This document shows, in pieces, positions 157 through 62,436 of a stretch of 64,000 nt of DNA. Numbering within the stretch: position 1 is the first letter of the stretch; each line of letters opens with the position of its first letter. The notes beneath the pieces were generated by a model. That model did not search any database. It was not told the DNA's origin and saw nothing but the letters and a program-made list of their open reading frames with translations. The translations under genes were made by a program, and so were the position numbers. The stretch is from Stegostoma tigrinum (taxonomy: Eukaryota), in NCBI RefSeq assembly GCF_030684315.1, contig NC_081391.1, positions 13,989,342-14,053,341 of the forward strand. The letters run 5' to 3'.

Positions 157-886
157 AAGCCAGAGAGGGCTGAGTGGGGTAACAGCCTGCAGGCGCTGCA
201 GGTTGCCCTGGATCTGGAGAAGAATGTGAACCAGAGTTTGCTGGATCTACACCAACTCGCCACAGCCCAGACTGACCCTCATGTGAGCTTTCCCACCTCC
301 TCGTTCTGATCACTGCTAGGCCCTCAGGGCAACACCTCATTGGTCTTTTGTAGATTAAAATTCACTGGGATACTTTGATCACAATATCATATCTGAACAG
401 TATGTTCATTTAATCAACATTAAAACAGCTCAGCAATGAGCTGAAATGGGAATTTGGATTCAGTACCACGAGTGATGTTGGCCACTGAATTCACTTTCAG
501 GGCCACTTGCAGTAGAATGATCATTGTCTGTCACAGTTCAGCTCGGCTCCACTTCACAAACAACAAGGTGCATCTGGAATGTTACTGTCCTCCCTGGCGC
601 AACATCTAGATGTCAGTGGCTTTTCCAGCTGTCGAGAGCCAGTTATGGTGGGGTCTGTTTCGCAGTGGGAATTCTGAAAATTTCCTGGATCATGCAAATG
701 TACCAAGTTGCCATAATTCCTCTGTTGCAGCTGTGTGACTTCCTGGAGACCCACTATTTGGATGAGGAGGTGGAGATCATCAAGCAACTTGGGGACTACA
801 TCACCAACCTGAAGCGCCTGGGAGCCCCTGAGAATGGGATGGGAGAGTACCTGTTTGACAGGCTCTCCCTGGAGGACAGCAGTTAG
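157..886 (+). pseudogene. Ferritin copy A, truncated fragment with exon 3 (157-282) and exon 4 (731-886) only
   Basis: Exon 3 [42 protein letters not shown] with cag/gt boundaries; exon 4 [14 protein letters not shown]...LSLEDSS* after cag; AATAAA 1014-1019. Only ~60 nt of intron 2 precede exon 3, directly after another copy's 3' UTR, so its own exons 1-2 are missing. Confidence 0.8.
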
Positions 887-2475
887 TGTGGCCTGGAGTA
901 CTGTCTGCTTGGTCTGAATGCATTCCCCACTTCACCCTGGGCAATCTGTCTCCTTCCAGGGAGAAGGGACTTGTAGCAAAGAATGTAATGGCTGTACCAG
1001 CTGAATGCAAATGAATAAAATGATGTGTTTATCTTGGTTCTTGTCCATCATTCAGACAGCTGGACGCTGCAGGTTCTCACCAATAGGCCGATGGGAAGAG
1101 ATATCAGGCTCTGCTTTCTGCCCAGGTGCAGGAAACAGTTCAGCTGGGACTGAGATGAGTTCAACCTGACTCGTATCCTCCCAATGGGCCCTGACATGAC
1201 CAGCATATTCTGTTTTACATTTGCTGCCTTTATCTCATGTGGACACAGCCTAAAGTTACTGGGAGCCGGTGAAGGTTCAAACCAAGGCCAGTACTGGTGG
1301 GCTGAGACCTACCCTGCCTTGTTACAGCCTACTGTAGTTGACAGCACTGAACAGTTCATTCCTCTTGTTGTGGGAGTTAAATATGCTGCTACCCTGAAGG
1401 GATCTTGGTGTAATTACCCTTAGCCTCGAGTCAATTCTCCTAGGAGCATTCTGAAGCTGGCCTAATGTGGCTTTTGTCAGTTTACTTTCTCTGACCTGTT
1501 CCAACACCTTCATTGCTTTTCTCACCCCTCCCACCACCCCACTCCTAGCAATAAACTTCCACCCTGCCAGTCTACAGCTGGGAAAATTCAGCCCCAACAT
1601 TGACAGCACCCATATTCCATGGAGTTAGCTCAGGAAATTATCTTGAACTGTTACATGCTCATGTATGAGCTCAATACCACTTCGAGCACCATCACTGTGT
1701 CTTTTGGAGTAACACAGCAACACTCGTGGTTCAATGCTGCCATTTGATTGGCTCTTGCTGCTAAAGCCAGCATTGAGTGCACTAAGCTGCTCCCTTGGTT
1801 CCTCTGTGCTTCACACACGCTGAGGGTTACTCCTGATGAAGGTAGATTTCACCCAATCACATTGAAGCATCAGTGCGACTTGGAGAGGAGACCGTGAGAT
1901 GCTGACTTTCCTGTACGACTGCTTCTTCTATCTTTTTGAGGTGTCAGAGAGATGATGGGTTGAGGAGGGGGTGATCAGAGCCAGCCTGGGGATTGTTCCA
2001 GGGAGTTGTGTAGCGAGTGCACACTGCAGCCTTCACTGAAGGTGTGGGTCGTTCAGGCACTGAATGTATTTGTTCCAGTACAAGAAGTGTTTTATTTCAA
2101 ATAATCTTGAGTCTTGGCTGTAGAATCTGTGAATCCGTGCAGTGCAGGAAGAGATTGTTCAGCCCATTTAGTCTGCACTGATCCTCTGTCCTCTGAACAG
2201 CATCTTGTTCAGACACACCCTGTCTTCTTGCCCCCATCTTTCTATCCCACAGCCATTGCAAAGTAAACTGCATGTCTCTGGACTGTGGGAGGAAAGGAAC
2301 CCACACAGACACGGGGACGATGTACAGCCTCGTCAGAGTCGCCCATGACTGGAATGACATGTGGGTCCCGGGCACTATGCAGCAGCAGTGCTCATCAGTA
2401 AGATACCATGCCCCCGAAAGTAACAAAAACAGGAGCAGGTGGTGAGGAAAGTAAAGCAAGCTTTTCCTTTTTCAG

Positions 2476-5400
2476 ATGAGTTCCCAGATCAGTCAGAACT
2501 GTCACCAGGATTGTGAAGCTACTGTCAAAAGGCAGATTAATGTGGAGCTCACTGCCTCCTATCTCTATCAGTCTTTGGTGAGTGGTGTCCCTGCAGGGTT
2601 AAAACTTGATCTATGTAGTTGAAGTAAATGTTTTCTCTTGAATTTAATTAACTGGGCACTCTCTCTTTGTAGATTGAGTTTTGTAGTCCTTTCCTAAATA
2701 TTAATTCAGGATAAGGGCAACGTTACTATACCAATGGGGTTTGATAATGATGTACTCTGAAGCTGGGTCCCAGTTGGGCTTCAGAGATATGTGGAGGATG
2801 AAGTGTCCCTGGAGATATTTGCCACTTTGGTGTTTGAATTGGCAGTAGATGTCATTCCCTCTAAGATTACCAAATGTTGGTAGGGTTACTTCAGAAAGGT
2901 ATTATATTGATCAGACTGTGGGACTAGAATCACCCACTGGCTAGTTACCCTCTTTCTGACAGGTTTAAGTATCTGATTTTATATTTGCTTGCTTTTGTGG
3001 TGATACTTAAATATCAATTCTGATATTGACAATGATAATTCCCTATTGCAGTCTGCTGTGGCTAATCTGAGCAAACCTACTTGAGGTTAGGCTGTGAGTG
3101 ACTGGTATCTGACTTTTTAAAGTAGATCTCAGCTGAGGCCTGCTTGGCATTTTGCACTCCCATCATGAGATGGGTGTGGCCTATCCCTGAACCTGTAGAA
3201 AGTTGATCTGCTTTAGTGTGTGGCGTGTTGAAGCTTCTGCAAACCATGTTTGCCTCCTGCCCCCTCACCCACACCCTGCATCCCCTCTAGCTGCTGGCGT
3301 CTGAGATTCATGGTCCAGTCTCTATGCCATCCTGATAGGGAACAAACTGTCCCCTTTAGCCAGGTGGCAGTGAACCTGTAACTTTCCAATGGGTAGAATG
3401 TTTCAGACAGTAGGAACAGCAGATGCTGGAGAATCTGAGATAACAAGGTGTAGAGCTGAATGAACACAGCAGGCCAAGCAGCATCAGAGGAGCAGGAAGG
3501 CTGATGTCTTGGGGCATGACCCTTCTGAAGGTGGGCCTAGGCCCAAAACAGCAGCCTTCCTGCTCCTCTGCTTGGCCTGATGTGTTCATCCAGCTCTACA
3601 TCATCGTATCTCAAGGGGTAGAATGTGTTTGGAAGTTGTGTTGAAGTAACCTTGGTGAGTGCTGCAGGGGACCTGGTAGATAATGGACCCTGAAAGGAGG
3701 TGGTGAATGCAGTCCCCATGAAGTGGGCTGCTCTGTCCTGGATGGTGTCTGCATCTTGAATGTTGTAGCTCCACCTCCACAGACACATGGAGAATCTTCT
3801 TCACTCTCAGCTTTTGTCTGTTAGAAAGAAGATGCCTCATGACAGATGGATGAAGCCCGTATAAACTCCATTTGGGAGGTGGGTACAGCTTTCATTGGTG
3901 AGCCAGTTGACGGGTTTTAATTACTGACCAGGGTCCCAATTCCCTTGGGGAACACGTGTGCCAATTATAAAATCCTTCCTATTCTCTCCTGCCACAGCTT
4001 GTTCCTACCCCGTTAAACAGACAAGAAATTTTGTTTGACTGCTTCTACATGAAGACAATAACTTCCCACCAGGCTTCCTCGACAACAAAACTCTTAGCTC
4101 CTGTTTCAAATATCAGAAGAATAGCCCTTCATAAACCTCAAGGCATTGGATTGTGAATATCTCGGTTCGGAAGTGAGTCACATATGGGTGGACAAACAAC
4201 AGAACGGTGCCAGCTGGGATAAGCCAAACTTTGTTGTCCAGCTTTGTGTTAACTAGTGACGTTAGATCAGCCATTATCTGTAGATACAGGTCACATTGGT
4301 TCTCTCTCTCCAATATTTGACCTTCCCTCAGTTTGATTCAATTTGTTTTGTTCATGTGACCCTTGTTCTCCCCCTTCTGGATGTGAGTGCACTAATTTTA
4401 GTGTGCTATAAACTATAACTGCAACAATCCAGAGGCAGTTACTGGGTAGGTTTTCCTTTGCACTATCTTGTTGTCGCTTTCTCTCATTCGCCTCTATTAT
4501 ATCTTGTAGTCATAAAATATACCGTACATTCAATCTCCCTGGTTTTGAGGCCACAGAAACCTTGCTTCGTCCTGGTTATATTGTTACAGCAGTGTCTAAC
4601 ATGTATTTCCATGCCAGCCCCAAAGGAGCAATAGTGTTACAGCTCCCCTACTCAAGTATAGCCTGCACTCCAGCTCCTGGTGCTTGTTTCAGCTGTTTGT
4701 TTGGCACTAATATTGTCCAATTCGAATGAAGGTTAGTGAGTGCAAACATGGCTGGATACAAGAAGAGCTATAATGCTGTGCCAGGCAGCCTGAGTAATTT
4801 ACTGTTTGTTTTAAGCCAAACTTTTGCCAGTTTCCAACAGGAAATTGGGATTGTTCTGTTTGATCCCAGTTGAAGGATCTGCTGGACAGCTGGACATCAT
4901 TGGGTTCTCAAACATGTTCACATACCAGGCAGTTAGTTTGCTGCAGAAGGCTGAACTAGAATTTGGAGTCAGTGCTGTGTTTAATGGGCTTTAACATGTT
5001 ATCTCCCTTCCAGATGTCCTACTTTGACCGGGATGATGTGGCCCTCCCCCACTTCTCCAGGTTCTTCAAAGATCAGTCCCGGGAGAAGCAGGAACATGCA
5101 GAGAAGCTGCTGAAATTCCAGAATCAGCGTGGAGGCCGAGTCCTCCTCCAGGATGTGAAGGTTGGAGTTGGGTGGGAGGGTTGCAGCTGTGGAGGAGAGA
5201 ATGGCAGCTCTTGTGGTGCTGCGTCCTGTTGGGATGTGAAAATCCTATTTTGGCATGGCTTCCCTGTTTGATTTCTTTTGAAGGCAGTTTCTAAACAAGC
5301 CCTATTGTCCACCATGTCTATGCTGCCCACAAACATCAAACTAGACTAACACAATTTCCTGCACTTAGTCCACAGCCGACTATCTTCTGGCATGAAGAAG

Positions 5401-7204
5401 TTGTTGAGATTAGGCTTCAATGTTGCTGGAGTAACTGCCTCCACTGACCCCTCAGGTAATGCATCCCATACCTCTCCCACCCTCGACTGGGTGGGTGGGT
5501 CCTCCAATCTCCTCAAACCTGTGCCATCTGGTCTTCATGTCTGCCATGGGGACTGTGTATTGTCCATCCTCCCTGATCTTCCACACTTCCATCAGATCAC
5601 CATCCCAGGCTATCCAACCTCCCTCTCATCATTGTATTTTTGTTGTCTTTTTTTGCTTCCATCTTGGGCCAACATCCTGATGACCCTCACCTGTACCCCC
5701 TGCAGTGCCACCTTGTCCCTCTGATGGTGGTTCTGGTCACCACACTACATTCCATCTTTGGTCTGGCCAATGCTGCCATGTTTGTGGCAAGACTCATCCT
5801 TTCTACTGAGCCCCAAATCATGGAGACCAGCATCATGTCAGCCCCTTCCCCACTCTGTCTACCTTTGCTGAACCTTGAGGGATGGACTTGGGCATTTGTT
5901 GCTTGTCCCTTTTACTGTAAGCACATTGCTCCCTTCAATGAATTAAATAGTAGTGATGTCTGATCATCCTGCTCAGACATGGATGAAGCCACCAGCACAG
6001 GTGAGACATAGATGCCTGGCCTGCAAGGTGCAGATTGGTACTCTACCTCAAGAGCCCTTGAGACTAAGGTGTCAATGTCCTGATCTAAACGCCAAATGGG
6101 CACTGGTGCAAACAGTTGAACTTTGTGTGAAATAAATCCCTAGCCCACAATGACTTCATGCTTCAGATCAAGGATAAATGGAGCAAAGTGAAGTCACTTC
6201 ACAAGTAATGAATGTGGGTTTTAGGGGTGGCACAGTTGCTCAGTGCCAGGGACACAGGTTTAGCTCTGGCCTCTGATGACTGGTGCTTACATGTTCAGGT
6301 TTCTTCCTACAGTCCAAATATGGGCAGGCTGGGTGAAGTAGCCATGGGGGAATTGCAGTGCGAATGGCTCAGGTAAATCTGAGATCTTCTTCAGAAGGTT
6401 GATTGCAGACTCAATGGGCTGAATGGCCTGCTCCCATGCTGCGGCGAGTCTCTGATTCTGAAGCTTAACTGTTCCTGTTTCCATCCTCAGAAGCCTGAGA
6501 GGGATGAGTGGGGTAACAGTCTGCAGGCAATGCAGGTTGCCCTGGATGTGGAGAAGAATGTGAACCAGAGTTTGCTGGATCTACACCAACTCGCCACAGC
6601 CCAGACTGACCCTCATGCAAGCTTCACCTCTTCATTCTCATCACTGCCATGCCTCCTCAACTTCATTGGTTGGTCTTTGTGGAGTGGAAATTCACAGACG
6701 TAACTTTGTCCAGATGCTACATTGTACCTTTGTCATCATAATTATGATGACAATGTTAAACTGCTCAACACCGAACTGAAATAGGAATTTGGATTACAGT
6801 CTAGTGGGAATGCTGATGTGATTTTTGGCTGCTGAATTGGGGATTGTTGCACTATACAATACAACTTGGAGCTCTTTAAGAAGGTGAGATGAAGCAGCTG
6901 AAATGTCCTCACTGGCACAAATTCTCCACCTGTTAGCTAGATTTTCAGGGATGTCTAGAACTAGCTATGGCTCAGTCTTTTTCAGTAGGAATTGTGAAGT
7001 TGTCTTGGATAGTATAAATGTACCAAGTGTCATATTCCTCTGTTGCAGCTGTGTGACTTCCTGGAGACTCACTATTTGGATGAGGAGGTGGAGATCATCA
7101 AGCAACTCGGGGACTACATCACCAACCTGAAGCGCCTGGGAGCCCCTGAGAATGGGATGGGAGAGTACCTGTTTGACAGGCTCTCCCTGGAGGACAGCAG
7201 TTAG
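2476..7204 (+). CDS. Ferritin copy B (exons 2476-2577, 5014-5160, 6491-6616, 7049-7204); open 176-aa frame but promoter deleted and intron 3 donor is GC; possibly a pseudogene
   Basis: Spliced translation [52 protein letters not shown]...[12 protein letters not shown]...[13 protein letters not shown]...LEDSS*. Donor after 6616 is gcaagc. AATAAA 7330-7335. No TATA/CCAAT/DR1 cassette upstream. Confidence 0.7.
3402..3611. mobile_element. Short inverted-repeat element, probably Penelope-like terminal-repeat derived, in intron 1 of B; remnant in F at about 36185-36318
   Basis: Inverted arms (gtagagctgaatgaacacagcaggccaagcag / ctgcttggcctgatgtgttcatccagctctac); flanking 15-bp direct repeat caatgggtagaatgt 3387-3401 and caaggggtagaatgt 3612-3626. 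Confidence 0.7.
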
Positions 7205-8885: not shown

Positions 8886-9133
8886 AAAAGTACCAAACAA
8901 AAGGGGGAGGCTGTTGCACAGTCATCAAGTCGTACATCATGGAAATAGACTCTTCTGCCCACACAGTCCCTACACACCAGGTTTCCAAAACTCTGTAGTG
9001 CCATTTGGCCCATCTTCCTCGAAGCCATTCCTTCCCCCATAAGTGTCCAAATGTCTTATCAAAGTGGTAATTATACGTCTATTTTATTCTCATTTTCAGG
9101 TTGATAAACTTATACAATTTGTTCTTGCACAGG

Positions 9134-9315
9134 AGGTCAAAGGTCATTCAGCAATTCCATCATCCACCAGTTGTCAATTCTGGTTTCTGGATCCAATTCC
9201 CATCCTGCACTGATTGGACGTGGCAACTGATCAATTGATTAACAAGAGTGATTGGCCATCACTGATGATGTCATTTCCTGCTCAAAAAATGAGGGTCTTC
9301 TCCTGGAGTATAAAT
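9134..9315 (+). promoter_or_regulatory. Proximal promoter of copy C: DR1, two inverted CCAAT boxes, TGATGTCA/TTTCCTG motif, TATA
   Basis: AGGTCAAAGGTCA 9134-9146; ATTGG at 9213 and 9251; TATAAAT 9309-9315; block shared by seven copies. Confidence 0.75.
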
Positions 9316-9411
9316 AGAGCCCAATGGCATTGCTATTTTAGGTGTAGCTGATTTTCTTTCTATATTTATAATTTGGTTTTGTTGGATAAGGAAAGTTGTT
9401 TCTATCACAAA

Positions 9412-12400
9412 ATGGCCTCCCAGATCAGTCAGAACTATCACCAGGATTGTGAAGCTGCTGTCAACAAGCAGATTAATGTGGAGCTCACTGCCTCCTATCT
9501 CTATCAGTCTTTGGTGAGTGCTGTCCCTGTGGGGTTGGAGTTACTTCTGTTATGAAGTGAACTGTTTTTTTTTAAAACAAACTAGATTAATACTCTTGTA
9601 TAATAAAATGTGAGGCTGGATGAACACAGCAGGCCAAGCAGCATCTCAGGAGCACACGTTTAGCTTTTGTGCTCCTGAGATGCTGCTTGGCCTGCTGTGT
9701 TCATCCAGCCTCACATTTTATTATCTTGGAATTCTCCAGCATCTGCAGTTCCCATTATCTTTAACACTCTTGTAGACTTGTTTGTTTTTTTTTGTATCTC
9801 TCTTAGCTATTTCTTGATTCAGCGTAAATGTGGTGACAATGGGATATGATACTGATATGCAGCAACTGAGGCCCCAGTTGTCTCAATGATATATGGAGGG
9901 TGAAGCATCTTGTGATTTATCTTACAATTCCTTTTAGGGCTGTGATTGCCTATAACTGGCTGTGGCTCTCCATAATTTTCTAAACTACTGTCAAGCTTTG
10001 ATCCAGATAACCATTGGCTAACTACCTTTTTAAATCTGCCTTGATGTATCTGCTTTAATTTTGTGCATGTAAATAAACAAACATACTGGTTTTGGTATTT
10101 ACAATAAGGTGTTGTAGTAATTTGACAAATCAGATTTTTTTAAGCTGAACTGAAGTCCTTGAGGTAAGACAAGCTGCTCCCTGCTTAAGTAGGTCTCCGA
10201 TATTATTTTGGCTTTCTGTGCTCTATATCATGAAGTGGGTTTGATCCATCACTTCACAACCTATAGAAAGTTGACTTGTTATAGGTGCCTGCCCCCCCCC
10301 GACCCCCCCGCCCCCAAAAGGGGGCTGCTGGAACATGCTGAGGCTATTGACCCAGAGGTGAAGAAATAAATGTTCTTCCTTTACCATTTAACCAGATAAA
10401 GAAACAAACTGGCTCCTCCCACCATGTGGTGGTGCCCCTGTGCCCTTCCAAGGAGTAGAATGTGTTCAGAAGGTGTTGAGGTCCCCTTGGTGAGTGCTGC
10501 AGGGGACCTGGTAGATAATGGACCCTGAAAGGAGGTGGTGAATGCAGTCCCCACGAAGTGGGCTGCTCTGTCCTGGATGGTGTCTGCTTCTTGCACGTTG
10601 CAGCTCCACTTTTCTCCAGACACATGGAGAATATTCATCACTCTCTGGGCTTGTGCCTATTGGAAGGAAGTCCTATCTAGGGACATGAGGATAAAGTCCC
10701 TATAACTACCTTTTTGGGAGGTGGGAATAGCTTTAACTAGTGAACCAATTGTTGGGTTTTAGTCACTGACCACTGTCCCAACTCAATAGGGAATCTTGTG
10801 TGCTGATAATAAAATCCCCACTATTCTTCACCTTCTACAACTTAACTACCCAATTAAACCACTTTTTTAACTTTTAGTTTGTATTTGAGGATTAAACTAA
10901 CTTCTCACCAGGATTCTACCAAAGAACAACTTCTTCTTTTGATGTCAATAGACTGTTCCTAATCAGCAGTAACTTGTTGGATTGTGAATCTCAGTTGAAA
11001 AGTGAGTGAAATGAGTGGGGAAAACAATAGTTTAGCCTCTTGGAATAAGCTAAATTGAGCTCTCCAGCTTTGAACAAGTCAACAATCTATAGGTCACACA
11101 GTCCTGCAGATACCATTAGGCCTCCTGAACATTTGATCTTGTTTCAGTTGTGAATTTTAATGCTTTGCTTTGCAAGCTTCTGGCAACCTGAGTGCATGGC
11201 ATAAACAAATGTGATAAACTATTGCTGCAACAAGCCAAAGGCTGTCACTGGGCAGGCTCTCCTTTAGCACCAAGATTCTCCTAATCGCCCTCATTCTCCT
11301 GCATACTGCAAACAGCATCTCTTGTAGAGCTGCTTTATGTAAAAAAAAATACAGTACATCTGATCCAATTGGTTGCAGAAGACCTGTACCTACCAGCTAT
11401 ATTAATGTCCAGCATCTGCATGTTACTCGAGCACCAGGGGAGACATGTAATGACTTGAAGTTGCCTGACCCTGTGCACATCCTGCATTCCAGCTCCTGGC
11501 ACTTGTTTAAACCCTATTCAGTTACCACTTCCATCCATTTCTGGAGGCTAGATGGTAGAAATGTGCTTTCAGCTTTTCTATCCAGGCTGTGCCAGACACC
11601 CCCCCCCCCCAAACAATTCAGCAGGGTTTACAAACCAAAACACTGAATTTGCATCTTACGTGGAAGAAGCTGGGGTTGTTTGGTTTCCTCCAATTAAAGG
11701 AGCTGCTGGCTAATTTTGCAACACCATTAGTGAACATTGTAAGGTGTCAACAATTTTCAGCTGATTGAATCATTAGTTTGCTTTAGACTAAACCAGTCCT
11801 CCAGTTCTGAGCATGAGAAATGGGGTCAATGATGTGTTTAATGGGCTTTAACATGTTATCTCCCTTCTAGATGTCGTACTTTGACCGGGATGATGTTGCC
11901 CTCACCCATGTCTCCCGGTTCTTCAAAGATCAGTCCCAGGAGAAGCAGGAACATGCAGAGAAGCTGCTGAAATTCCAGAATCGGCGTGGAGGCAGAGTCC
12001 TCCTCCAGGATGTGAAGGTTGGAGTTTGGGAGGGGGGCATGGTGTGGTGTGCAGGAATGGTAGCTCATGGTGTTTTCTGTTAGTAGTGACAAGATTTTCA
12101 TGTGGTAAAGGATGTGAAGGTTGGAGTTGGAGAAGGCAGGCAGTGGGGAGGAGATGTGAGAAATGGCTGCTTATGGTGTGGTTTCATGTCCTGAAAGAAA
12201 GTGAAAACTGTTTTGTTTGGCTCCCCTCCTTTTGACTAAAAGGAAAGAAATCCCAGAAACAAGCCTCTTGGCTCCCCTCCACCTGCTGCTCCCCCCCCCC
12301 CCCCCCATGCTGACCCGATAAACACCAAACCACATGAATCCCATTTACTGCACTTGGTCTACAGCCCCCATGGCATTGGTAGTTGTCTAGAAGCTGCTTA

Positions 12401-14248
12401 AATATTGCAGCAGGAGATGCCTCCACCACTGCCCCACCCCCCCCATATTATTTTTCCACTACCCTCTCGGCAAAGGATTCCTCTAACCTGCTTACTCCTC
12501 ACATCAGTGCCCTCTGGTCTTAATGTCTCTTTCTCCCCACCCCCTCATAGCAGACACTCCCCATCTACTATCAAGACTCCACACTAATCAAATGCCATCA
12601 CATAAACATCTCAACTGACTTCACTCTGAGGATTGGAGTGAGAAATCTGATCTCTCCTTTTAATGGATTTTTCAGTCTTGGGGCAACATCCTGGTGACCC
12701 TTCCAGTGCCATTGTGGCTCTGGTCACCACACAGTATTCCACCTTTGCATGGCCAATGCTGCAAAGTTTGTGACAAGACTGGAGTCCCTGTCCTGCGCCC
12801 CAAGAAATGGGGAAGGGCATTGTGGAAGCCAACTTCCCCATCCTGTCTACACTTATGGATCCTTGAAATATCTCTAGTCTTGTTCTCTTGGTTCCTTTTA
12901 TTGTCAACATATTGCTGTCCCTTCAATGAATTAAATAGTAGTGATGCTTTTGATCATTCAGGTCAGTCCTATATGAAGCCATAAGCACAAGTGGGACTTC
13001 AACCTGGGCCTATGCTCCAAACCTAGGGACAGTACCACTGCATTACGAGCCCTGGGATTAAGTTGTGAATATCCTCCTTGGGATGCCATCAGATGGGCAC
13101 TGACAATTCTGTGCAAACATAACTCTTATCCCCACTATGACCTGGTTGTGAATTGACTTTCCTTTCGGAAGAAGCAAATAGGGCTAGGTGAAAGCAATTC
13201 CTTAAATCACTGATCTGTTCTTCCTGAGGACTTCAGGGATGGCGGTGGTTAGCACAACTGCATCAGTGCTTGGGGCACAAGCTTAATTCTGGAGTTGACA
13301 TGTTCACCGCATCTCTACATAGGCTTCCTCCCACAGTCCAAAGATGTGCAGGGTAGGATAGGCCATGAAAAATGCAGGATTACATGGCTGGGGCTAGGAC
13401 CAGGTTGGATGCTCTTCAGATGGTCATGAGTGGGCAGAATGGCCTGATGCATGCTGCAGGGATGTTGTTTCTGAGGCTTACCTGTCCTTCTTTCCATCCT
13501 CAGAAGCCAGAGAGGGATGAGTGGGGTAACAGTCTGCAGGCGCTGCAGGTTGCCCTGGATCTGGAGAAGAATGTGAACCAGAGTTTGCTGGATCTACACC
13601 AACTCTCCACAGCCCAGACTGACCCTCATGTAAGCTTCACCACCTCCTCATTCTCATCACTGCTAGACCCTCAGGGCAACACTTCATTGGTTGGTCTGTG
13701 TGGATTGGAAATTCACAGGTGTGCACTGATCACTTTGGGTCCATGCTGCTGAGCAGTTGTTACATGGTGATCAGTAATGAAGTGAAATGGGAGTTTGGAA
13801 GGCAATCCATTGGGAGTGATGAAGTGATATTGGCCATTGAATTCCCATTCTCACTTGGGAGCATTACAGTGGAATGATCATTGTCCATCACCATCCAACT
13901 CAGCTACACTTCACAAACAGCAAGATGGAGCAGCTGACATCCTATTGTCTTCACTGGCACAGATTTTCCAGGTGTTAGCTAAATTTTCAGGGCTGTCTGG
14001 AACTAGTATGGTAAAGCCTGTTTTTCAGTGGGAATTCTGAAATTGTCTTGGATAGTGTTAATGCACCCAGTTGTCATATTCCTCTGTTGCAGCTGTGTGA
14101 CTTCCTGGAGACTCACTATTTGGATGAGGAGGTGGAGATCATCAAGCAACTTGGGGACAACATCACCAACCTGAAGTGCCTGGGAGCCCCTGAGAATGGG
14201 ATGGGAGAGTACCTGTTTGACAGGCTCTCCCTGGAGGACAGCAGTTAG
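9412..14248 (+). CDS. Ferritin copy C, 176 aa (exons 9412-9513, 11871-12017, 13504-13629, 14093-14248)
   Basis: Four phase-0 exons of 102/147/126/156 nt, GT-AG introns at the positions typical of vertebrate ferritin genes, no stops; TATA 9309-9315; AATAAA 14376-14381. Confidence 0.92.
9601..9760. mobile_element. Hairpin-forming inverted-repeat insertion (Penelope-like pLTR derived) in intron 1 of C
   Basis: Perfect ~56-bp inverted arms; 14-bp target-site duplication ttaatactcttgta 9587-9600 and ttaacactcttgta 9761-9774. Confidence 0.8.
10425..10670 (-). mobile_element. Ancient LINE 3' relic in intron 1, shared by all copies (about 3612-3830, 27950-28200, 36320-36540, 53465-53710, 63150-63400; partly deleted in D and G)
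   Basis: Minus-strand translation [14 protein letters not shown] resembles the C-terminus of a common shark non-LTR retroelement RT (recalled, not database-checked). Confidence 0.55.
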
Positions 14249-17307: not shown

Positions 17308-17495
17308 AGGTCAAAGGTCATTTCAGCAATTTCATCATCAACCAGTTGTCAATTCTGATTGGTTTTTTGACCCGATTCCCATCCTGCACTGATTGGATGT
17401 GGCAGCTGATCAATTGATTAACAAGAGTGTTTGGCCATCACTGATGATCTCATTTCCTGCTTCATAAAATGAGTGTTGGCTCCTGGAGTATAAAT
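17308..17495 (+). promoter_or_regulatory. Proximal promoter of copy D
   Basis: Perfect DR1 17308-17320, ctgattgg, cagctg, TATAAAT 17489-17495. Confidence 0.75.
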
Positions 17496-26909: not shown

Positions 26910-27096
26910 AGGTCAAAGCTCATTCAGCAATTCCATCATCGACCAGTTGTCAACTGTGTTTCGTTTCTGGATCCAGTTCCCATCCTGCACTGATTGGACG
27001 TGGCAGCTGATCAACTGATCATCAAGAGTGATTGGCCATCACTGATGATGTCATTTCCTGCTCCATAAAAAGAGGGTCTGCCCCTGGGGTATAAAT
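26910..27096 (+). promoter_or_regulatory. Proximal promoter of copy E
   Basis: DR1 variant AGGTCAAAGCTCA 26910-26922, two gattgg boxes, cagctg, TATAAAT 27090-27096. Confidence 0.72.
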
Positions 27097-43613: not shown

Positions 43614-43801
43614 AGGTCAAAGATCATTTCAGCAATTTCATCATCAACCACTCATCAATTCTGATTGGTTTTTTGACCCGATTCCCATCCTGCACTGATT
43701 GGATGTGGCAGCTGATCAATTGATTAACAAGAGTGATTGGCCATCACTGATGATCTCATTTCCTGCTTCATAAAATGAGTGTTGGCTCCTCGGGTATAAA
43801 T
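43614..43801 (+). promoter_or_regulatory. Proximal promoter of copy G
   Basis: DR1 variant AGGTCAAAGATCA 43614-43626, two gattgg boxes, cagctg, TATAAAT 43795-43801. Confidence 0.72.
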
Positions 43802-43888: not shown

Positions 43889-46800
43889 ATGGCATCCCAG
43901 ATCAGTCAGAACTATCACCAGGATTGTGAAGCTGCTGTCAACAAGCAGATTAATGTGGAGCTCACTGCCTCCTATCTCTATCAGTCTTTGGTGAGTGCTG
44001 TCTCTGTTGGGTGAAACATACTTCTGTTCTGTTGAAGTGAACTCTACCCCTTGGATGTAATTAAGTTGTCTATCTTATAGACTGAGTTTTGTGGCTCCTA
44101 CCTATTTCTCAATGCAGGATGAGTGTGATGTTACTGTAACAATAGTTTGGTGTCCAATGTTACTCTAACTTGGGTCCCAGTTGGTTGTCAGTGAGATGTG
44201 GAGTGTTCTTGTAGTTACTTGCCTGTCCCATGATGGTGCTGTGACTGGTGGTAATTATAGCTTCCTGTGGCTGTTTGAAACTTGAGGGAACTAATTTAAA
44301 AATGAATTGGGACTAACCATTGTGGGAATGGAAGCACCATCAGCTAGTCACTGCTCTTCTTTTCCTTCTTGTATCCTTGCTTGTATTTGAATTTTGTGGT
44401 GATCCCAACTTAACATCTCAAATAATCTTGAGAATCTTGATTTCCTATTGCAATCAGCTTAGAATAGGCTTGTTCTAGCCCTACAGAGCTGGGCTGAGAG
44501 GTGGCAAATGGAGTTTAATGCAGACAAGTGTGAGGTGATGCACTTTGGTAGGAGTAACCGGAAGGCAAAGCACGAGGCTAATGGTAAGATTCTTAGTAAT
44601 GTAGATGAGCAGAGAGATCTCGGTGTCCACGTAAACAGGTCCTTGAAAGTTGCCATCCAGGTTGACAGGGCGGTTAAGAAGGCAGTGTTTTCTCTTTGAT
44701 TAATAGAGGCATTGAGTTCTGGAACCAAGAGGTTATGGTGAAGCTGTACCAAACTCTGGTGTGGCTGCACTTGTAGTATTGTATACAGTTCTGGTCACTG
44801 CATTATAAGGATGTGGAAGCTTTGGCAAGAGTGCAGAGGAGGTTTACTAGGATGTTGCCTGGTATCGAGGGAAGCTCTTATGAGGGAAGACTGAGGGACT
44901 TGAGGCTGTCTTCATTGGTGAGAAGGTTGAGAGTTGACTTAATTGAAACATATAATATTCTGAGGGTTGGAAAGGGAAATCCTCTTTCTGCGGACGGTGA
45001 GCATGAGGGGGCATAGCTGTAAATTGAGGGATGATAGATATAGGACAGATGTCTGAGGTAGTTTCTTTACTCAGTAGTAAGGGAATGGAATGCTTTGCCT
45101 GTGACGGTAGTAGATTTGCCAACTTTAGGTACATTTAAGTCGTCATTGGACAAGCATATGGACGTACAGGGAATAGTCTAGGTTAGATGGGCTTGAGATC
45201 AGTATGACAAGTTGACACAACATCTAGGGCCTGTACTGTGCTGTTATGTTCTAGTTTCAGATTAAACTGGGTGAGGTTGTGACTGGTATCTGATCAAGCA
45301 GATCTCCATTTGAGATCTACTTTGCTTTTTTTCATACTCATGAGGTGGGTGTGGGCTGTCTGTATATGAAGTGTTGGAGCTTTTCCAAGGCACGGCACTG
45401 CCGTGGGGCTGAGAATGTGCGGAGGGTACTGACCCAGTGAATATGCAAAAAATAGCTTATTCCTGTTGTATTTGGCCTGACTCTAACTAGCCCCTCTTTC
45501 CCCAGGTGGTTGGGTGCCTGTGCCCTTCCAAGGGGTAGAATGTGTTTAGAAGGTGTTAGAAGTAACCTTAGTGAGTGTTGCCGGGTGCTCTCTGGGCTTG
45601 TGCTTGTCAGCAGGAAGTCCTGTCATGATGAGGATCAAGTCCCTGTCAGCCCCACTTTGGGAGGTGGCAACAGCTTTCATTGAGCCACCAGTTCAGTTTT
45701 AATCGCTGACCCATGTTCCTAACACAACTTGGAAGCATGTCCCAAGAGTAAAATCTCCACTATTCTACATCTTCTAACTGCCCATTTAAATGGGCAATGA
45801 TAAATTGTGCTTGTGTTTGCATTTGACAATTAAAGCAACTTTTTTCAGCAGGATTCCCAAGAATGTGTGTCTTAGTAGCTGCTTGCAATAGCAGACCTGG
45901 TAAACCTGAATACATTGAATTGTGAACATCCTGGTTTAGAAATCTACAGGACTTTGCCTGTTGGATTAAGTCAACAGTAGCATTTCCAGGTTACTGTTTT
46001 AATAAGTGATGTTGTCTAGAGAGTAGGTGATCTGCAGGTCACTGTCATATTTGTCATGTGATCAGTTTGTTTTGTCAATCATTGTTTCATGTGTAATGGT
46101 ACAAGTTGCTAGCAGTCTCAGTACAGCTGTTTTAGATGCAGCAGTAAACTGTATCTAGAACAATCCAAAGACTGTCCCGAGGCAGGCTTTCCTTGGCAGA
46201 TTCTTGGTGCCCATGTCCTTCATTCATCCCTTCCCCCTCACCCCAGCCACCCCACTACTGCAGCCCTTGTCAAACTAATACAGTGCATCCAATTGCATTG
46301 ATCCTGACTAAGCAGAAAATGTGCTCCTTCCTAGCTGTTAGTTGCAGTGTCTGGGATCTGTTTTCTGGCCTTTGCCAAAGGAGCAATAGCGTGCCCTGCA
46401 GCTGTTCTATTGGTGCACATCCTGCATTCCAGCTTCTGGCATTTCTTGAAACCCTATTCAAACAGTAATTTATCCCATTTCTGGTGGAGGTTAATCAGTA
46501 AAAACATCAATTCACACTTGTTCTCACCAAATGCTGTGCCAGACCCACTGAGCAATTTGCCAGGAGTTTCAAACCAAAATAAAACACATGGTGTTTACAG
46601 CTTACCTGGAGGAAGCTGGGATTGTTTTGATTTTTCCAATTCAACAGGAACTGCTCAAAACTGGGTTCTGAATTGTTAATGCATCAGGTACTTAACAGCT
46701 TATTGTCAGTTTGATTTTGAGAATGCTCAAGTAGCCCTGGAGCTCTGAACTAAAATTGGCCCGTGACTTGTTAATGGGCTTTACCTTGATCTCCCTTCCA

Positions 46801-49062
46801 GATGTCCTACTTTGACCGGGATGATGTTGCCCTCCCCCATGTCTCCCGCTTCTTCAAACATCAGTCCCAGGAGAAGCGGGAACATGCAGAGAAGCTGCTG
46901 AAATTCCAGAATCAGCGTGGAGGCCGGGTCCTCCTCCAGGATGTGAAGGTTGGAGTTGGGTGGGGTGGGGGTTGGGATGGTAATGGCTGCTCTTGTGGTG
47001 TGGTTTCAAGTCAGTGACAAGGTTTTCATTTGAGTCAAATCTTTGTTCGGCCTGTTTGATCTCCTTTTTGAAGCCAGTGTAGAAAGAAGCCCTTTGGCCC
47101 ACCATGTCTTTGCTGACCCCACAAACACTAAAGCACTTTAATCCCATTTCCCTTCCCTTGGTCCACAGGCCACTGTCCTGGCACTATGTACTTGTCCAGC
47201 TGGACCTTAAACTGATCTGGAGTAGCTGACTCCACCACCATCCAACCCTTTATGTGGTTCATCTCATATTTCTAACCTCCCCCTCGGAGGAGGGTGAAGA
47301 GAACGTTTCCTCCAATCCCCTCTAACCTGCTTACTCCACAAACCTGGTTTCTCTCTGGTCTTGGTGTCTGCCATGGGGAAGGCATTCCATCAACTGGCCA
47401 CTCTCTATTCTTCAATAGTTACATCAGGTCACTCCCTCAGCCGTTCCTGCTCCACAGAAAATCCCAGCCTATCTAACCTCCAATCAATGGATCTTGGGCA
47501 ACAGCCTGGGCAGCCTCACCAGCTTCCCCCTGCAGTGCCATCCTGTCCTTGTGACTGGTGAGGCCAAAGAGGGAATAATGTGGTGACTAGAAGAACAAAC
47601 TGTGACAAGACTGGCCCCCTTCCTGTTCCACCACACCCAACTAATAGAGGTTGCTTGCCCTCTGTCACTGTTACACCCTGTTGACCTTGTCTGAACTTTG
47701 AGGGATCTATGGTTGTGGGCCTTTCTTAACTGTTAGCAGCACAACACACTTTGCAAACACCTCGCTGTCCCTTGGATGAATTAAATAGCCGTGATGTTTC
47801 TGATCATCCTGCTCAGGCATGTATGAAGCCACCAGCACAAGTGGTACTTGAACCTTGGCCTTGTCAGCCAGAGACAGGGGCACTACCACTGTACCATGAC
47901 AGCATTTAGGATTCACTTGTGAATATCCTCGCAATTCCATCAGATGGACCCTGATGCAAATCTTGTCATTATCCCCCACAATGACCTGTTATTCACCTTC
48001 CTCCTTCAGATCAAGGACCGACAGGCAAGGTGAAAGCAATTCTGAAGGAACTGTTCTTCAGCTGTGCTCCAGGGCTGCCTCAGGGGCGAGCAGTGTTCTC
48101 AGTGCTAGGGACACAGGTTTTGATCTGGCCTCTGGTGAGGGACTGGTGTTTACATGTCCTCCCCATGTCTGCGTTGGTGTCCTCATAGTATAAGAGGATT
48201 GGCCATCTGAAATGCAGGGTTACAGGAATAGAGGGGGAGTGGGATGAGCTGGGATGCATTTCAGAGCAGTTCTGCACTGATCGATGTTGTAGAGATTCTG
48301 AAGCTTCACTTTCCTTCTTTCCATCCTCAGAAGCCAGAGAGGGATGAGTGGGGTAACAGCCTGCAGGCGATGCAGGTTGCCCTGGATCTGGAGAAGAATG
48401 TGAACCAGAGTTTGCTGGATCTTCACCAACTTGCCACAGCCCAGACTGACCCTCATGTAAGCTTCACCACTTCATTCTCTTCACTGCTGGTCACTCAGGG
48501 CAACACCTTCAATGGTTGGTCTTTTGTGGATTAGAAGTTGCCTGCTGTCTCAGACAAGTGCCATTTGGATCTCTTCAGATCCGTACCAATGCTTATAATC
48601 TGATCAGCTCAGCAATCAAGTAAAATGGGAATTTGGATTATAATCTAGTAGGAGTGATGAAGTGATATTGGCCACTGAATGCTCATCCAGGATTATTGCA
48701 GTGGAATGATCACTATCCATCATAATCCAACACAGCATCACTTAACAAACTGCAAGAGCAGTTGAAATACATGGTCCTCACTGGCATAGTCTCCAGGTGT
48801 TAGGTTTTCAGGGTAGTCTAGAGCTCATATGGCTGAGTGTTTTGCAGTAGGAAATCTGAGGTTGTCTTGGATAGCATTAATGTAGCAAGTTGTCATATTC
48901 TTGCAGCTGTGTGACTTCCTGGAGACTCACTATTTGGATGAGGAGGTGGAGATCATCAAGCAACTCGGGGACTACATCACCAACCTGAAGCGCCTGGGAG
49001 CCCCTGAGAATGGGATGGGAGAGTACCTGTTTGACAGGCTCTCCCTGGAGGACAGCAGTTAG
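43889..49062 (+). CDS. Ferritin copy G, 176 aa (exons 43889-43990, 46802-46948, 48331-48456, 48907-49062)
   Basis: Intact spliced frame, GT-AG introns; TATA 43795-43801; AATAAA 49191-49196. Confidence 0.92.
44484..45254 (+). mobile_element. CR1-type LINE fragment in intron 1 of copy G (same insertion site as in D)
   Basis: ORFs 44508-44699 and 44813-45016 are CR1 RT C-terminal pieces; flank agaataggcttgttctagccctacag is identical to that in D. Confidence 0.88.
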
Positions 49063-52430: not shown

Positions 52431-52617
52431 AGGTCAAAGCTCATTCAGCAATTCCATCATCGACCAGTTGTCAACTGTGATTCGTTTCTGGATCCAGTTC
52501 CCATCCTGCACTGATTGGACGTGGCAGCTGATCAACTGATCATCAAGAGTGATTGGCCATCACTGATGATGTCATTTCCTGCTTCATAAAAAGAGGGTCT
52601 GCCCCTGGGGTATAAAT
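52431..52617 (+). promoter_or_regulatory. Proximal promoter of copy H
   Basis: DR1 variant AGGTCAAAGCTCA 52431-52443, two gattgg boxes, cagctg, TATAAAT 52611-52617. Confidence 0.72.
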
Positions 52618-52703: not shown

Positions 52704-55700
52704 ATGGCCTCCCAGATCAGTCAGAACTATCACCAGGATTGTGAAGCTGCTGTCAACAAGCAGATTAATGTGGAGCTCACTGCCTCCTATCTCTATCAGT
52801 CTTTGGTGAGTGCTGTCTCTCGGGGTTAAACATATAAATCTGTTCTGTTGAAGTAAATTCTTTGCCTGGCCTCTAGTGAAGCTGACAATCTAGTAGATTG
52901 AGGTTTTGTGGCTCCTACCTAAATATCAGTTCAGGATAGAGGTGGTGTTACTATCACGATGGTGTAGGATACTGATGTATGTTAACTCAGGTCCCAGTTG
53001 GCCTTCAGTGGTATCTGGAGGGTAAAAGCCTCTTGCTTTTGTTTTCTTTCTGACACAAGTTTCCTGACTTCATTTGCCTGATCTCTGTGGTGGTCCTAAA
53101 CAAACATGCTGATTTTTTTTAACACTGACTATAACAATAACTTCCCTGTTGCAGTGGCCCTTGTTAGTCTGAACAAACCTGAAGCTAGTCTGTGACTAGC
53201 ATCTGTTTTAAGTAGATCTCCTTCATTGAGGCTGACTTGGCTTTACTTGTATTTATTGAAGATGTGGGTGTGGCCTATCCCGTCCCTACTGAGAGTTGAT
53301 CTGCTGTGTGTGAGAAATGTTGGATCCCCACTCTGCCCCTTCTCCACCCCACCCCATGCTGGGGCTGCTGGAATGTGCTGAGGCTATTAGCCCAGTGACA
53401 GTGAAGGAATGGAGGTTGTTCCCATATCATTTAGCTTGACCTAAAACAAAATGTCCCCTCTATCCCAGTGGTGATGTGCTTGTGCCCTTCCAAGGAGTAG
53501 ACTGTGCTTGGAAGGTATGTGTTGAAGTAACCTTGGTGAGTGCTGCAGGGGACCTGGTAGGTAATGGACTCTGAAAGGAGGTGGTGAATGCAGTCCCCAT
53601 GAAGTGGGCTGCTCTGTCCTGGATGGTGTCTGCTTCTTGCATGTTGCAGGTCCCCTTCTCCAGACACATGGAGAATATTCATCTCTCTCTGGGCTTGTGC
53701 CTGTTGTGAGGAAGTTGTCTTGTAATGAGGACTAAGTCCCTATAAGCCTCACTTGGGAGGTGGGACAGCTTTATTGGTGATCCAGTGGTTGGGGTTTAAT
53801 CACTGTGTCCCAACTCTGTTGGCACATGCTTCCCAAGGATAAAATCCCGACTATCTTCTGCCATGACGTGTAACTACCCACTTAAACCAGAGATTTTTGC
53901 TTGCCTGACTGTGGTTTTTGGATTTGTGGATTAAAGTAACTTTTCAGGAGTCCTTCCCCAGAATGTAACTCTTAGCTGATGCTTCCAATAGTGACGATTA
54001 GCTCTTAAACCCTTACATCGAATTGTGAACATGACAGTTTAGATATGAGTCACATGGGCTGAAAGCCGACAGGATTTTTTGCCTGTTTGGGTTAAGTCAG
54101 GGCAAGTGCTTTTCCAGGTTACTGTTTTCACTAGTGACGTTATCTACAGGCCACTGATATTTGACATTTGATCATTTGTTTCAGTCATGTGACTTGGTGC
54201 AAGTTTCTGACAGCCTGAGTTTGCACTATTTTTAGGCAGAGCAATAACCCACTGCTGCAACGATCCAAAGGCTGTTACTGGGCAGGCTTTCCTTGGCATT
54301 ATCTTAGTGCTAAACATCATACTGAAGATAGCGTACCCGTGTAGAGTTAATGTGTACACTTATGTCCAAATCTCATTGATCCTGGGTTTGTAGAAAACAT
54401 TCTCCCTACTATTCATTGACTAGAACAAGGTTCAACATCTTTTTTGAAAGTTTACCTGAAAGGCAAAACACAGTGCCTTGTGGCTCCTCCATCCTGTGTA
54501 CATCCTGTACGCCAGCTCCTGGCACTTCCTGAAACCCTGTTCAACCAGTAACTTCATCCAATTCTGTTGGAGATTAATGAATAGAAGCATGAATTCAGCT
54601 CTGTCTCTCCACAAAGGCTGTGCCAGGCACTCCTGAGCTAATCACCAGTAGATTCAAACCAAAATAAAACAGTATTTTTGGTTCCAGGAGGAAGCTGGAC
54701 TGTTGTGATTTTGCCCAGTTGCTGGTGAATTGAACAACACTGGGTTCACAATCTGTTCAGTGTCTGACACATGAGCATGCCTTCTGTCAGTTTGGTTTGA
54801 GTGCTCAAGTAGTCTTGTAGTTGAGAACTGCAATGGGGAGTGAGCCAGTGATGTCTAATGTAACTTGAACTTGTTCTTCCAGATGTCCTACTTTGCCCAA
54901 GACGATGTTGCCCTCCCCCATTTCTCCCAGTTCTTCAAAGATCAGTTCCAGGAGAAGCGGGAACATGCAGAAAAGCTGCTGAAATTCCAGAATCAGCGTG
55001 GCGGCCGAGTCCTCCTCCAGGATGTGAAGGTTGGGGTTGGGTGGTGGGGGAGTGCAGGGTGGAATGGCTGCTCTTGCGGTGTCATCTCCAGTGACAAGAT
55101 TTTCAGATCCTGAGCGAGTGTGGAAAGTTCTTTTGCTTGGCTTCCCTGTTTGCTCTCCTCCATCTCCAGTGTTTCAGCATTTATACAAGCCTGACTTCCA
55201 TCAAACAACCACCTCAGCCTCACCTGCTCAAAGGACAAGGAAAACCCCAGCCTGTCCAATCTCTCTCCTCACAATGGATTTTCTGTCTCGGGGAAACAAC
55301 CTGGGGACCCTCACCAGCACCCCCTGCAGTGCTATCCTGTCCTTCTGACTAGCGAGGCCAAAGATAGAATGCAGCAGAGGCCGGAAGAACAATTTTCATA
55401 AAATGTGTTCAAAGGACTTGTCCCTGTGCTGTTCCTCACAACCCTGCCCCAAACTAACACATGTTACTTGGCCTATGTCCCCTTTCACACACAGTTTGCC
55501 TTGTGTGAGCATTGAGGGATCGATGATCCTGTGTTTATTGTAAGCACATTACTGCCCCCGACAATGAATTCAAGTAATGATGGTTCTGACCATGCCGCTC
55601 GGGCATGTATGAGGCCACAAGCACAAGTGAGACTTGAACATCAGCCTTGTCAACCGGAGCTTGGGACACTACCGCTACTTCCCCCACAGCCCTTGGGATT

Positions 55701-56912
55701 CACTCATGAATATCCTTTTTAAGACTCCAGCAGATGGACACTGGTGCAAATGACTAATCTGGTACATATTTATTCCCTGTGGTACAAGGATATGTTCCTG
55801 AACTTCCGGCTTCAGGTCAAGGATAAATGGGGCAAGGTGAAAGGAGTCACCAAGTAGCTAATGTTTTCTTTATCTGGACTTCAGGGATGGCACAGTGGCT
55901 CAGTGGTTGGCACTGTTGACTCAGTGCCAGGGGTACCAGTTTGGTTCTGGCCCGTGACGAGAGTTTAAACGTTATCCCAAAGCATAGCATCCCCACACAG
56001 TAGAAAAGAAGATTGGCAACTTGAAATGCAGGTTACACGAACAGGGTGGGAATGGGACCAGATGGGATGCTCTTCAGCAGTTATGGTCTCAGTGGGGTGA
56101 ATGGCCTGCTCCCATGCTGCAGGGATTCTGTTTCTGAAGCTTACCTGTCCTTCTCTCCATCCATAGAAGCCAGAGAGGGATGACTGGGGTAACAGCCTGC
56201 AGGCAATTCAGGTTGCCCTGAATCTGGAAAAGAATGTGAACCAGAGTTTGCTGGATCTACACCAACTCGCCACAGCCCAGACTGACCCTCATGTCAGCTT
56301 CACCTCCTCATTCACATCACTGCTAGACCCTCAAGGTAACGTTTCATTGGTTGGTCTGTGTGGATTGGAAATTCACTGAAGTAACACTTTCCATCCATTA
56401 CTTTCCTGAACTATTGTAACATTGATCACTTGGGATCATACTGATTACAATGAGGTATAAGGGGAATTTGATCTATAATCTAGTGGAAGTGCTGAAATGA
56501 CGTTGGCCACTGAGTTCTTCATTAGTATCATTGCAGTGGAATGATCATTGTCCATCACAATCCAACTCAGCTCCATTTCACAAACAGCAAGATGGAGCAG
56601 CTGACATGTTGTCCTCACTGGCACAAATTCTCCAGGTGTTAGCTCGCTTTTCAGGGCTGTCCAGAGCTAGTCATGGCTAAGTCTGTCTTGCAGTGGGAAT
56701 TCTGAAATTGTCGTGGATAGTATAAATGTACCAAGTGTCATATTCCTCTGTTGCAGCTGTGTGACTTCCTGGAGACTCACTATTTGGATGAGGAGGTGGA
56801 GATCATCAAGCAACTTGGGGACTACATCACCAACCTGAAGCGCCTGGGAGCCCCTGAGAATGGGATGGGAGAGTACCTGTTTGACAGGCTCTCCCTGGAG
56901 GACAGCAGTTAG
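52704..56912 (+). CDS. Ferritin copy H, 176 aa (exons 52704-52805, 54883-55029, 56167-56292, 56757-56912)
   Basis: Intact spliced frame, GT-AG introns; TATA 52611-52617; the conserved YFDRDD motif is changed to YFAQDD; AATGAA 57040-57045 plus ATTAAA 57088-57093. Confidence 0.88.
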
Positions 56913-62051: not shown

Positions 62052-62238
62052 AGGTCAAAGGTCAGTCAGCAATTCCATCATCGACCAGTTGTCAATTCTG
62101 ATCGTTTTCTGGATCCAATTCCCATCCTGCACTGATTGGACGTGGCAGCTGATCAATTGATGAATGAGAGTGATCGGCCATCACTGATGATGTCATTTCC
62201 TGCTCAAGAAAATAAAGGGCTGCTGCTCGAGTATAAAA
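62052..62238 (+). promoter_or_regulatory. Proximal promoter of copy I
   Basis: Perfect DR1 62052-62064, first CCAAT intact and second changed to gatcgg, TATAAAA 62232-62238. Confidence 0.72.
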
Positions 62239-62334
62239 ATTGTCCCAAGAGAGCGATGTTTATGGTGTAGTTGATCATCTTTCTAAGTTTGTTATTTGAT
62301 TTTGGAGGAAAAGGAAATCTATTTTCTTCATAAA

Positions 62335-62436
62335 ATGGCCTCCCAGATCAGTCAGAACTATCACCAGGATTGTGAAGCTGCTGTCAACAAGCAGGTTAAT
62401 GTGGAGCTCACTGCCTCCTATCTCTATCAGTCTTTG
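62335..62436 (+). CDS. Ferritin copy I, exon 1 (gene continues beyond the window)
   Basis: [34 protein letters not shown] followed by gtgagt; TATA 62232-62238. Confidence 0.88.

Follow-up and report, generated by a model that had tools for sequence, protein, structure and literature searches.

A zebra shark ferritin array encoding an M-type subunit with lysine at position 62 and no iron-responsive element

Described ferritins close to the zebra shark array

Sharks are known to carry amplified ferritin genes, and the window studied here, a stretch of 64,000 nucleotides from the 3.2-Gb genome of the zebra shark Stegostoma tigrinum (C50:13,989,342-14,053,341, where C50 is the contig that holds the window), lies inside a tandem array of ferritin genes, which we call array 1. 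Sahm et al. 2024 (bioRxiv 10.1101/2024.09.09.611499) reported 155 “FTL” and 179 “FTH1” copies, three ferritin clusters that are syntenic in the Greenland and white sharks, and ovary-specific expression of the largest Greenland shark cluster. Yang et al. 2026 (PMC13214024) found the number of FTH1b genes raised in sharks generally, with the highest number, 59, in the Greenland shark and fewer copies in rays and chimaeras; their link to ferroptosis and longevity is speculative, they note high numbers in certain shorter-lived sharks as well, and their zebra shark data came from the older assembly GCA_022316705.1. Like array 1, these expansions are tandem clusters on one chromosome, old, common to sharks and mostly full-length, and array 1 very likely belongs to them. 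Whereas the published studies count copies, the present analysis distinguishes a family with lysine at position 62 (human H-chain numbering), the K62 family, from a ferroxidase-intact sister family, array 2, and an iron-responsive element (IRE) was seen in neither.

The array had been put forward in the preliminary description as a candidate for an undescribed system, with an existing account of the cluster named as grounds for giving that up. The amplification as such is already in print in both reports, while the altered active site and the missing IRE were not found there. The word “ferroxidase” is absent from the searched text of both, and “iron-responsive” from that of Yang et al.; the latter term was not searched in Sahm et al., where “iron” does not occur in the available text. 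The split into an active and an inactive family, the loss of the IRE, the replacement of the arginine that binds NCOA4, and a zebra shark copy number far above the published maximum of 59 were not found in print. We found no description of the zebra shark array, its active site or the K62 family in the literature within reach, which excluded most subscription papers, figures and some supplements, and “ferritin” is absent from the main text of PMC11979771, PMC8455134 and PMC10015161. No Somniosus ferritin was among the protein matches listed, and the Greenland shark clusters are compared here by description only.

Several individual ferritins resemble the array 1 subunit. The mammalian FTHL17 gene is X-linked, FTH1-like and, as we take it, intronless, with six copies in mouse, whereas the array 1 genes have three introns, form part of a clade that contains sharks only and come to about 170. 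Nevertheless, FTHL17 shares with array 1 the change E62K and a predicted loss of ferroxidase activity, is multi-copy in mouse and is expressed in the germ line (PMC7760355); we infer that E62K arose convergently in the two. The ferritin light chain, FTL, also has K62 (PMC6929972), and like it the array 1 subunit is predicted to be a non-catalytic partner. It differs in that array 1 keeps E27, Y34 and H65, none of which the L chain has, is nearest to M (middle) chains by sequence, has no IRE and has an incomplete nucleation patch; the L chain lacks E27 and H65 and carries K at 62 (PMC6929972). The sponge ferritin HdF2 combines E62K with the absence of an IRE, but it is a minor ferritin in which four ferroxidase positions and one channel position are altered, and no array is described for it in the available text (PMC8395497). 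The solved structures closest to the array 1 protein are those of bullfrog M (PDB 1mfr/4mjy; E about 1e-83), which has E58, Q137 and D140 where array 1, with its roughly 170 copies and no IRE, has K59, E138 and I141. In these comparisons array 1 is a member of the M/FTH1b family that does not belong with the catalytic H/M chains, the L chains or FTHL17, and it likely works like L or FTHL17.

Array 1, its subunit and its sister family

The region surveyed for array 1, C50:12.90-14.50 Mb, contains 170 ferritin units on a single strand (C50:12,987,143-14,403,990; 1.42 Mb) at a median spacing of 8.4 kb, and not a single N occurs in these 1.6 Mb. The amplification proposed from the window is real, the nine copies seen there being only a slice of it; the array, which had appeared open at both window ends, does continue on both sides, and the suspected shark origin was correct. 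A 25-mer from exon 4 gave 156 exact matches, all forward, and none for the reversed control; two 28-base minus-strand fragments of exon 1 were left out of the unit count. Four exons are present in 164 of the 170 units, frame and splice sites are intact in 112, and 58 lack an intact four-exon frame. Promoter block and TATAAA are retained as well in 91 of the 112 intact copies, which represent 78 distinct coding sequences and 64 distinct proteins. The genes are present in RefSeq under the automatic labels ferritin middle or heavy subunit-like (Stegostoma tigrinum). When 167 units were compared, three were exact duplicates and 24 had a partner at 99.9% identity or more; at 95% identity, the units form 42 types, arranged in higher-order blocks that are 98-99.8% alike. 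One 127-kb tandem duplication of about 15 units (C50:13.66-13.92 Mb) is 99.78% identical, in parts 99.99% or more, and may have been duplicated either falsely in the assembly or very recently in the genome.

Two of the catalytic residues are altered in every intact copy. The array 1 protein has 176 amino acids with a ferritin domain (PF00210, found on P0010), and all 176 residues are colinear with frog M (E 3e-84), with an offset of four against the 183-residue human H chain. Residue 59 (human E62) is lysine and residue 138 (human Q141) is glutamate in 112/112 intact frames, and residue 141 is isoleucine, in agreement with the altered active site noted in the window copies. In contrast to a complete ferroxidase centre (E27, Y34, E62, H65, E107 and Q141), array 1 thus has K62 and E141 throughout. 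E24 (human E27) and E104 (human E107) are invariant in the 112 frames, Y31 (human Y34) is kept in 107 and H62 (human H65) in 108. The ligand list and an inactive E62K+H65G mutant are given in PMC6929972, and a review states that E62K by itself abolishes the ferroxidase activity of FTHL17 (PMC7760355). Since E62K is present in all intact copies and both FTHL17 and the H-chain mutants are inactive, the array 1 subunit is predicted to be enzymatically dead.

From its likeness to solved ferritins, the array 1 protein would be expected to assemble as a 24-mer cage. At positions 57, 60, 61 and 64 (human numbering), which we take to form the acidic nucleation patch of the L chain, the 112 copies have D (64) or H (48) at 57, Q (102) or R (10) at 60, E at 61 in 107 and E at 64 in all. 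The isoelectric point (pI) is 5.0, against 5.8 for the canonical subunit. The secreted yolk ferritins of invertebrates have an N-terminal signal peptide; in the frog M alignment the array 1 protein shows no such extension, its residue 1 aligning with residue 1 of the cytosolic frog protein. The three-fold ion-channel residues H115, C127, D128 and E131 are kept in 112/112. A role of E134 as a channel residue is described in PMC8395497. Residue 19 (human R23) is lysine in 102 and arginine in 10 of the 112; R23 is needed for NCOA4 binding, the change tested being R23A and not R23K (PMC4592949).

The absence of an IRE, reported for the window, extends to the whole array: no IRE-like stem was found 5' of the first exon in any of the 167 units tested directly, and two positive controls, an H-type gene at C20:18.05 Mb and an M-type gene at C50:21.61 Mb, scored positive in the same test. 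A genome-wide Rfam search for IREs, in which 82 candidates were scored, gave two matches, namely these two control genes, a number that is a floor; absence was therefore tested directly in the arrays. No Rfam IRE match was found in the window at E<=1. The 91 promoters of intact copies all contain GATTGG and TATAAA, 67 contain CAGCTG and 76 contain a repeat of AGGTCA resembling a direct repeat 1 (DR1) element. Oocyte promoters typically contain inverted CCAAT boxes and E-boxes, and HNF4-type nuclear-receptor sites of liver and gut are typically of the DR1 kind; these motifs are only hints, and they point both ways on tissue.

Spliced transcripts of many copy variants are present, as the assumption of an expressed array had implied. 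In run X7 (kind “?”, 93% of words), 5,979 of 714,730 contigs lie on exon 2. Their cover stops at the exon 2 edges, with loose ends that match the last bases of exon 1 in 86 contigs and the first bases of exon 3 in 64, whereas contigs of run X9, which has the same organism code, continue into the introns; X7 therefore looks like spliced RNA. All 13 X7 variants compared are polymorphisms among the genomic copies, in broadly similar shares, and no change at codon 59 is listed among the X7 variants, which indicates that many K62 copies are transcribed. Variants of X7 are also present in the independent run X9. Run X11 had no contigs on exon 2 and is uninformative either way. Spliced contigs in X3 and X6 were not used: they are single low-depth contigs from other organisms, the X3 contig has indels, and the genome has intronless ferritin copies.

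The K62 family was placed with two trees. The main tree has 59 rows, namely 57 full-length or near-full-length sequences out of 228 stored proteins and two genomic genes, with no L chain and no FTHL17; a second, quicker tree of 47 rows added the white shark and also contained no L chain. In the 59-row tree, the K62 proteins form one clade (support 100/99), with K in 26/26 rows from 11 species, and this clade is sister to that of array 2 (98/89). Across both trees the family covers 12 shark species, so the amplification cannot be called lineage-specific as had been supposed, and multi-copy K62 genes recur in several of these sharks. Q141E occurs only in the 13 orectolobiform rows of the clade, and H65 is replaced by R, C or Y in some rows. 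Because the sevengill shark carries both families, both are older than the split of the two shark superorders, on the taxonomy as we understand it. In the 47-row tree a sawfish protein falls inside the array 2 family and a chimaera protein beside it, and some sevengill and sawshark array 2 rows have K or N at 62. No K62-clade protein of a ray, chimaera or sawshark was found among the best 120 of 2,977 matches. Copies mostly group by species or family, and the trees leave more than one single-copy gene as the possible source of the arrays.

In the zebra shark, the genes of the sister family lie at C50:19.95-21.56 Mb and on contig C216. A 21-mer marker for array 2 gave 251 exact matches, including one on C17 and some on C216, so that the genome holds some 170 array 1 units and 200 or more array 2 units. 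A 10-kb sample of C216 is 99.5-99.8% like array 2, and this contig may be a duplicate haplotype of C50. A 250-kb sample of array 2 holds 26 four-exon copies, of which 16 are intact; each of these 16 retains E27, Y34, E61, E62, H65, E107 and Q141 and has K at the R23 position. No IRE-like stem was seen in the 12 array 2 upstream regions read, at least one of which belongs to a broken copy. Array 2 is followed by three single divergent ferritin genes, the last of which is the IRE-bearing M gene at C50:21.61 Mb; its four exons and three introns break at the same residues as those of array 1. RUVBL2 lies between the two arrays and a cytohesin-2-like exon lies to the left of array 1, and we take both genes to be neighbours of human FTL on 19q13. 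Glycogen synthase, used as a further marker of the FTL locus, was found on C20 and C33 only and not on C50.

The ratio of nonsynonymous to synonymous polymorphism (pN/pS) in array 1 averaged 0.27 in intact copies (78 distinct coding sequences), 0.34 in promoterless copies and 0.42 in broken copies of the same length; counted by distinct variants, the values were 0.37, 0.41 and 0.44. Divergence is 0.079 at synonymous sites, 0.077 in the 3' untranslated region (UTR) and 0.24 in intron 3. Since synonymous sites and the 3' UTR differ less than intron 3, the exons are homogenised or constrained beyond the protein, which suggests exon-limited gene conversion or mRNA constraint in the intact copies.

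A possible ovarian storage role and its alternatives

We consider it highly probable that array 1 represents a real, expressed family that lacks an IRE and ferroxidase activity. Our preferred reading, to which we assign a probability of about 0.45, is that of an ovarian bulk ferritin built from an H/L-like pair of amplified subunits. The K62 subunit would be mass-produced in the shark ovary as the bulk subunit of the cage, would co-assemble with the ferroxidase-intact array 2 subunit and would store iron for the egg. Judging from other proteins, loss of the IRE would free translation from the cytosolic iron level, and R23K may weaken NCOA4-driven breakdown, so that the cages would persist. By analogy with the Greenland shark cluster, the ovary is probably the main site; iron storage of the H/L kind seems somewhat more plausible to us than another role.

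If the ovarian reading is true, it would explain the iron supply of very large shark eggs and would mean that the pairing of a catalytic with a non-catalytic ferritin arose independently in sharks. More tentatively, an M-type duplicate may have re-invented the H/L heteropolymer: two sister families would have shed the IRE and the NCOA4 arginine, one would in addition have lost its ferroxidase bridge through E62K before the major shark lineages split, and both would have been amplified to hundreds for iron-unregulated, degradation-resistant egg cages. In that case the published “longevity” expansion would be a reproductive system. What had been a curiosity of copy number in the literature becomes a system open to test. 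The amplification that has been linked to the long life of the Greenland shark is more extensive in the zebra shark, and of the two families the K62 one is predicted to be unable to oxidise iron, which bears on that link.

Several observations weigh against the ovarian reading. Large yolky eggs are found in rays and chimaeras too, yet these have fewer FTH1b copies. The full L-type nucleation patch is absent from the array 1 subunit, the DR1-like element of 76/91 promoters resembles nuclear-receptor sites of liver and gut, and the two arrays lie 5.5 Mb apart with only short promoter motifs in common. The K62 subunit may be dispensable, as the sawshark is rich in array 2 proteins and showed no K62-clade row among those best 120 of 2,977 matches. 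Present-day selection on individual copies is weakly shown, since pN/pS is also below 1 in broken copies and the contrast is small. Run X7 carries no tissue label, and the depth of its contigs does not gauge how strongly the genes are expressed. Finally, the ovary placement comes from the Greenland shark cluster, which may or may not hold the K62 family, and fin and blood show activity of some FTH1b copies (Yang et al. 2026, PMC13214024).

The K62 subunit could instead serve germ cells as a bulk or protective cage that does not depend on iron, either in the manner of FTHL17 (nuclear or regulatory) or as a storage or structural protein, and not as an L-like partner. FTHL17, with the same E62K, is expressed in germ cells, is multi-copy in mouse and is partly nuclear (PMC7760355). 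The separate position and own promoter of array 1, the further ligand changes of the clade (Q141E among orectolobiforms and, in part of the rows, R, C or Y for H65) and the incomplete nucleation patch all agree with such a cage. However, the iron-channel residues and E27 and E107 are invariant among the intact copies, and the lower pI of the protein relative to the canonical subunit does not suggest DNA binding; we regard this explanation as unlikely, though second to the preferred one.

The K62 paralog might also be old and conserved while its copy number is nearly neutral, with unequal crossing-over inflating and homogenising the array and no high dose needed. The 58 broken units, the close likeness of the higher-order blocks, the grouping of copies by species or family and the modest pN/pS contrast between intact and broken copies would fit. 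In contrast, frame and promoter are kept together in 91 copies, many variants appear in transcripts, and several shark species have K62 genes in multiple copies, which makes a neutral array improbable.

A little less probable again is that the arrays act as a somatic iron buffer that protects liver, yolk sac or blood from lipid peroxidation and ferroptosis, the role that Yang et al. 2026 propose for FTH1b in relation to longevity; the copies active in fin and blood in that study (PMC13214024) point in this direction. The DR1-like promoter element does so too, but the K62 subunit is predicted to be unable to oxidise Fe2+ alone and, without an IRE, would not respond to iron through iron regulatory proteins. 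The zebra shark, which we take to be far shorter-lived, exceeds the 59 copies called highest in that proposal. Moreover, the NCOA4-binding R23 is replaced by K in 102/112 array 1 and 16/16 array 2 copies, and the expression reported by Sahm et al. 2024 is ovary-specific.

That the array is largely an assembly artefact is very improbable: the near-identical 127-kb duplication and the likeness of the C216 sample to array 2 would allow it, but the sequence has no N, only 3/167 units are exact duplicates, the units form 42 types, the introns of the window copies are about 72-94% alike, and the same variants occur in the independent runs X7 and X9.

Features of the window and other ferritin loci

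The window copies were located by an exon-by-exon search, and A and I were completed from sequence past the window ends (Table 1). All exons of the nine plus-strand copies A-I, and the tail of a tenth, lie where the preliminary description had placed them. Its five intact copies with promoters (C, D, E, G and H) were upheld, although the total is 7/9, since A and I are intact beyond the window. The 176-residue frame is intact in each of C, D, E, G and H, their introns are GT-AG, and TATAAA lies 93-103 bases 5' of the ATG. Exon-4 starts of the window copies are separated by 6.3-9.1 kb, and no AATAAA was found within 200 bases of the stop in copies E and H.

Table 1. Features of the window and of the array 1 flanks (window positions unless another handle is given).
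Feature	Position	Strand	Remarks
Tenth copy, 5' neighbour of A: 3' UTR end and AATAAA	1..58	+	From sequence
Copy A, exons 3 (157-282) and 4 (731-886)	157..886	+	Exon search; gene starts 3.7 kb left of window; intact, promoter present
Copy B, four exons	2476..7204	+	Exon search; open 176-residue frame; promoter gone (AG immediately 5' of ATG); intron 3 donor GC
Copy C promoter and 5' UTR	9080..9411	+	DR1-like AGGTCA repeat, inverted CCAAT boxes, E-box, TATAAA at 9309; no IRE found in this block; block recurs upstream of D-I
Copy C, exons 9412-9513, 11871-12017, 13504-13629, 14093-14248	9412..14248	+	Intact
Copy D	17583..22730	+	Intact; TATAAA at 17489
Copy E	27183..31346	+	Intact; TATAAA at 27090
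Copy F	35799..39944	+	Pseudogene; TATAAG in place of TATAAA; two in-frame TGA, one in a 6-base insertion of exon 2, the other in exon 3
Copy G	43889..49062	+	Intact; TATAAA at 43795; exon 2 (46802-46948) translation identical to the corresponding part of P0010; codon K59 at 46874-46876
Copy H	52704..56912	+	Intact; TATAAA at 52611
Copy I, exon 1	62335..62436	+	TATAAA at 62232; whole gene intact, ends 2.9 kb right of window
LINE-like reverse-transcriptase fragments	25618-26310, 33647-34318, 51223-52158, 59969-60688	both	Between and within copies
Cytohesin Sec7 exon, left flank of array 1	L001:184-468	-	
Frag1/DRAM-like exon, right flank of array 1	L153:349-690	-	
580-codon open frame, flank of array 1	L159:4310-6049	+	No Pfam match

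Copies of the B type, with the promoter lost and AG just 5' of the ATG, also occur beyond B, and the R57 variant of this type is not among the variants listed for run X7. RefSeq models of 267-354 residues appear to join adjacent copies. The reverse-transcriptase fragments, which we take to be of the long interspersed nuclear element (LINE) kind, were duplicated along with the array blocks. Pfam matches in the array 1 flanks, where 140 of 1,140 frames were scored, were to Sec7, Frag1/DRAM (below its cut-off) and RVT_1.

Array 2 is of mixed orientation, with apparent inverted blocks around 20.4-20.8 Mb, and an N gap of 6,365 bases lies at 19,953,636. Two single-copy divergent ferritin genes lie between array 2 and the M gene (C50:21,570,741-21,601,897), and one of these two has K61, E62 and Q65 in human numbering. 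Among the array-2-type proteins, Pristiophorus japonicus (a sawshark) and the sevengill shark head very large clusters of up to 138 and 180 members, which possibly include other species (P0239-P0255, P0241). Ferritins of vertebrate type are filed under Aeromonas veronii and Salmonella enterica on short contigs (P0036, P0221), probably through host contamination of bacterial records. Dispersed ferritin matches with stops in the zebra shark genome (C11:45.82 Mb, C5:51.55 Mb, C2:140.65 Mb, C17:12.13 Mb and C43:36.44 Mb) are likely retrocopies, several of them crossing exon borders.

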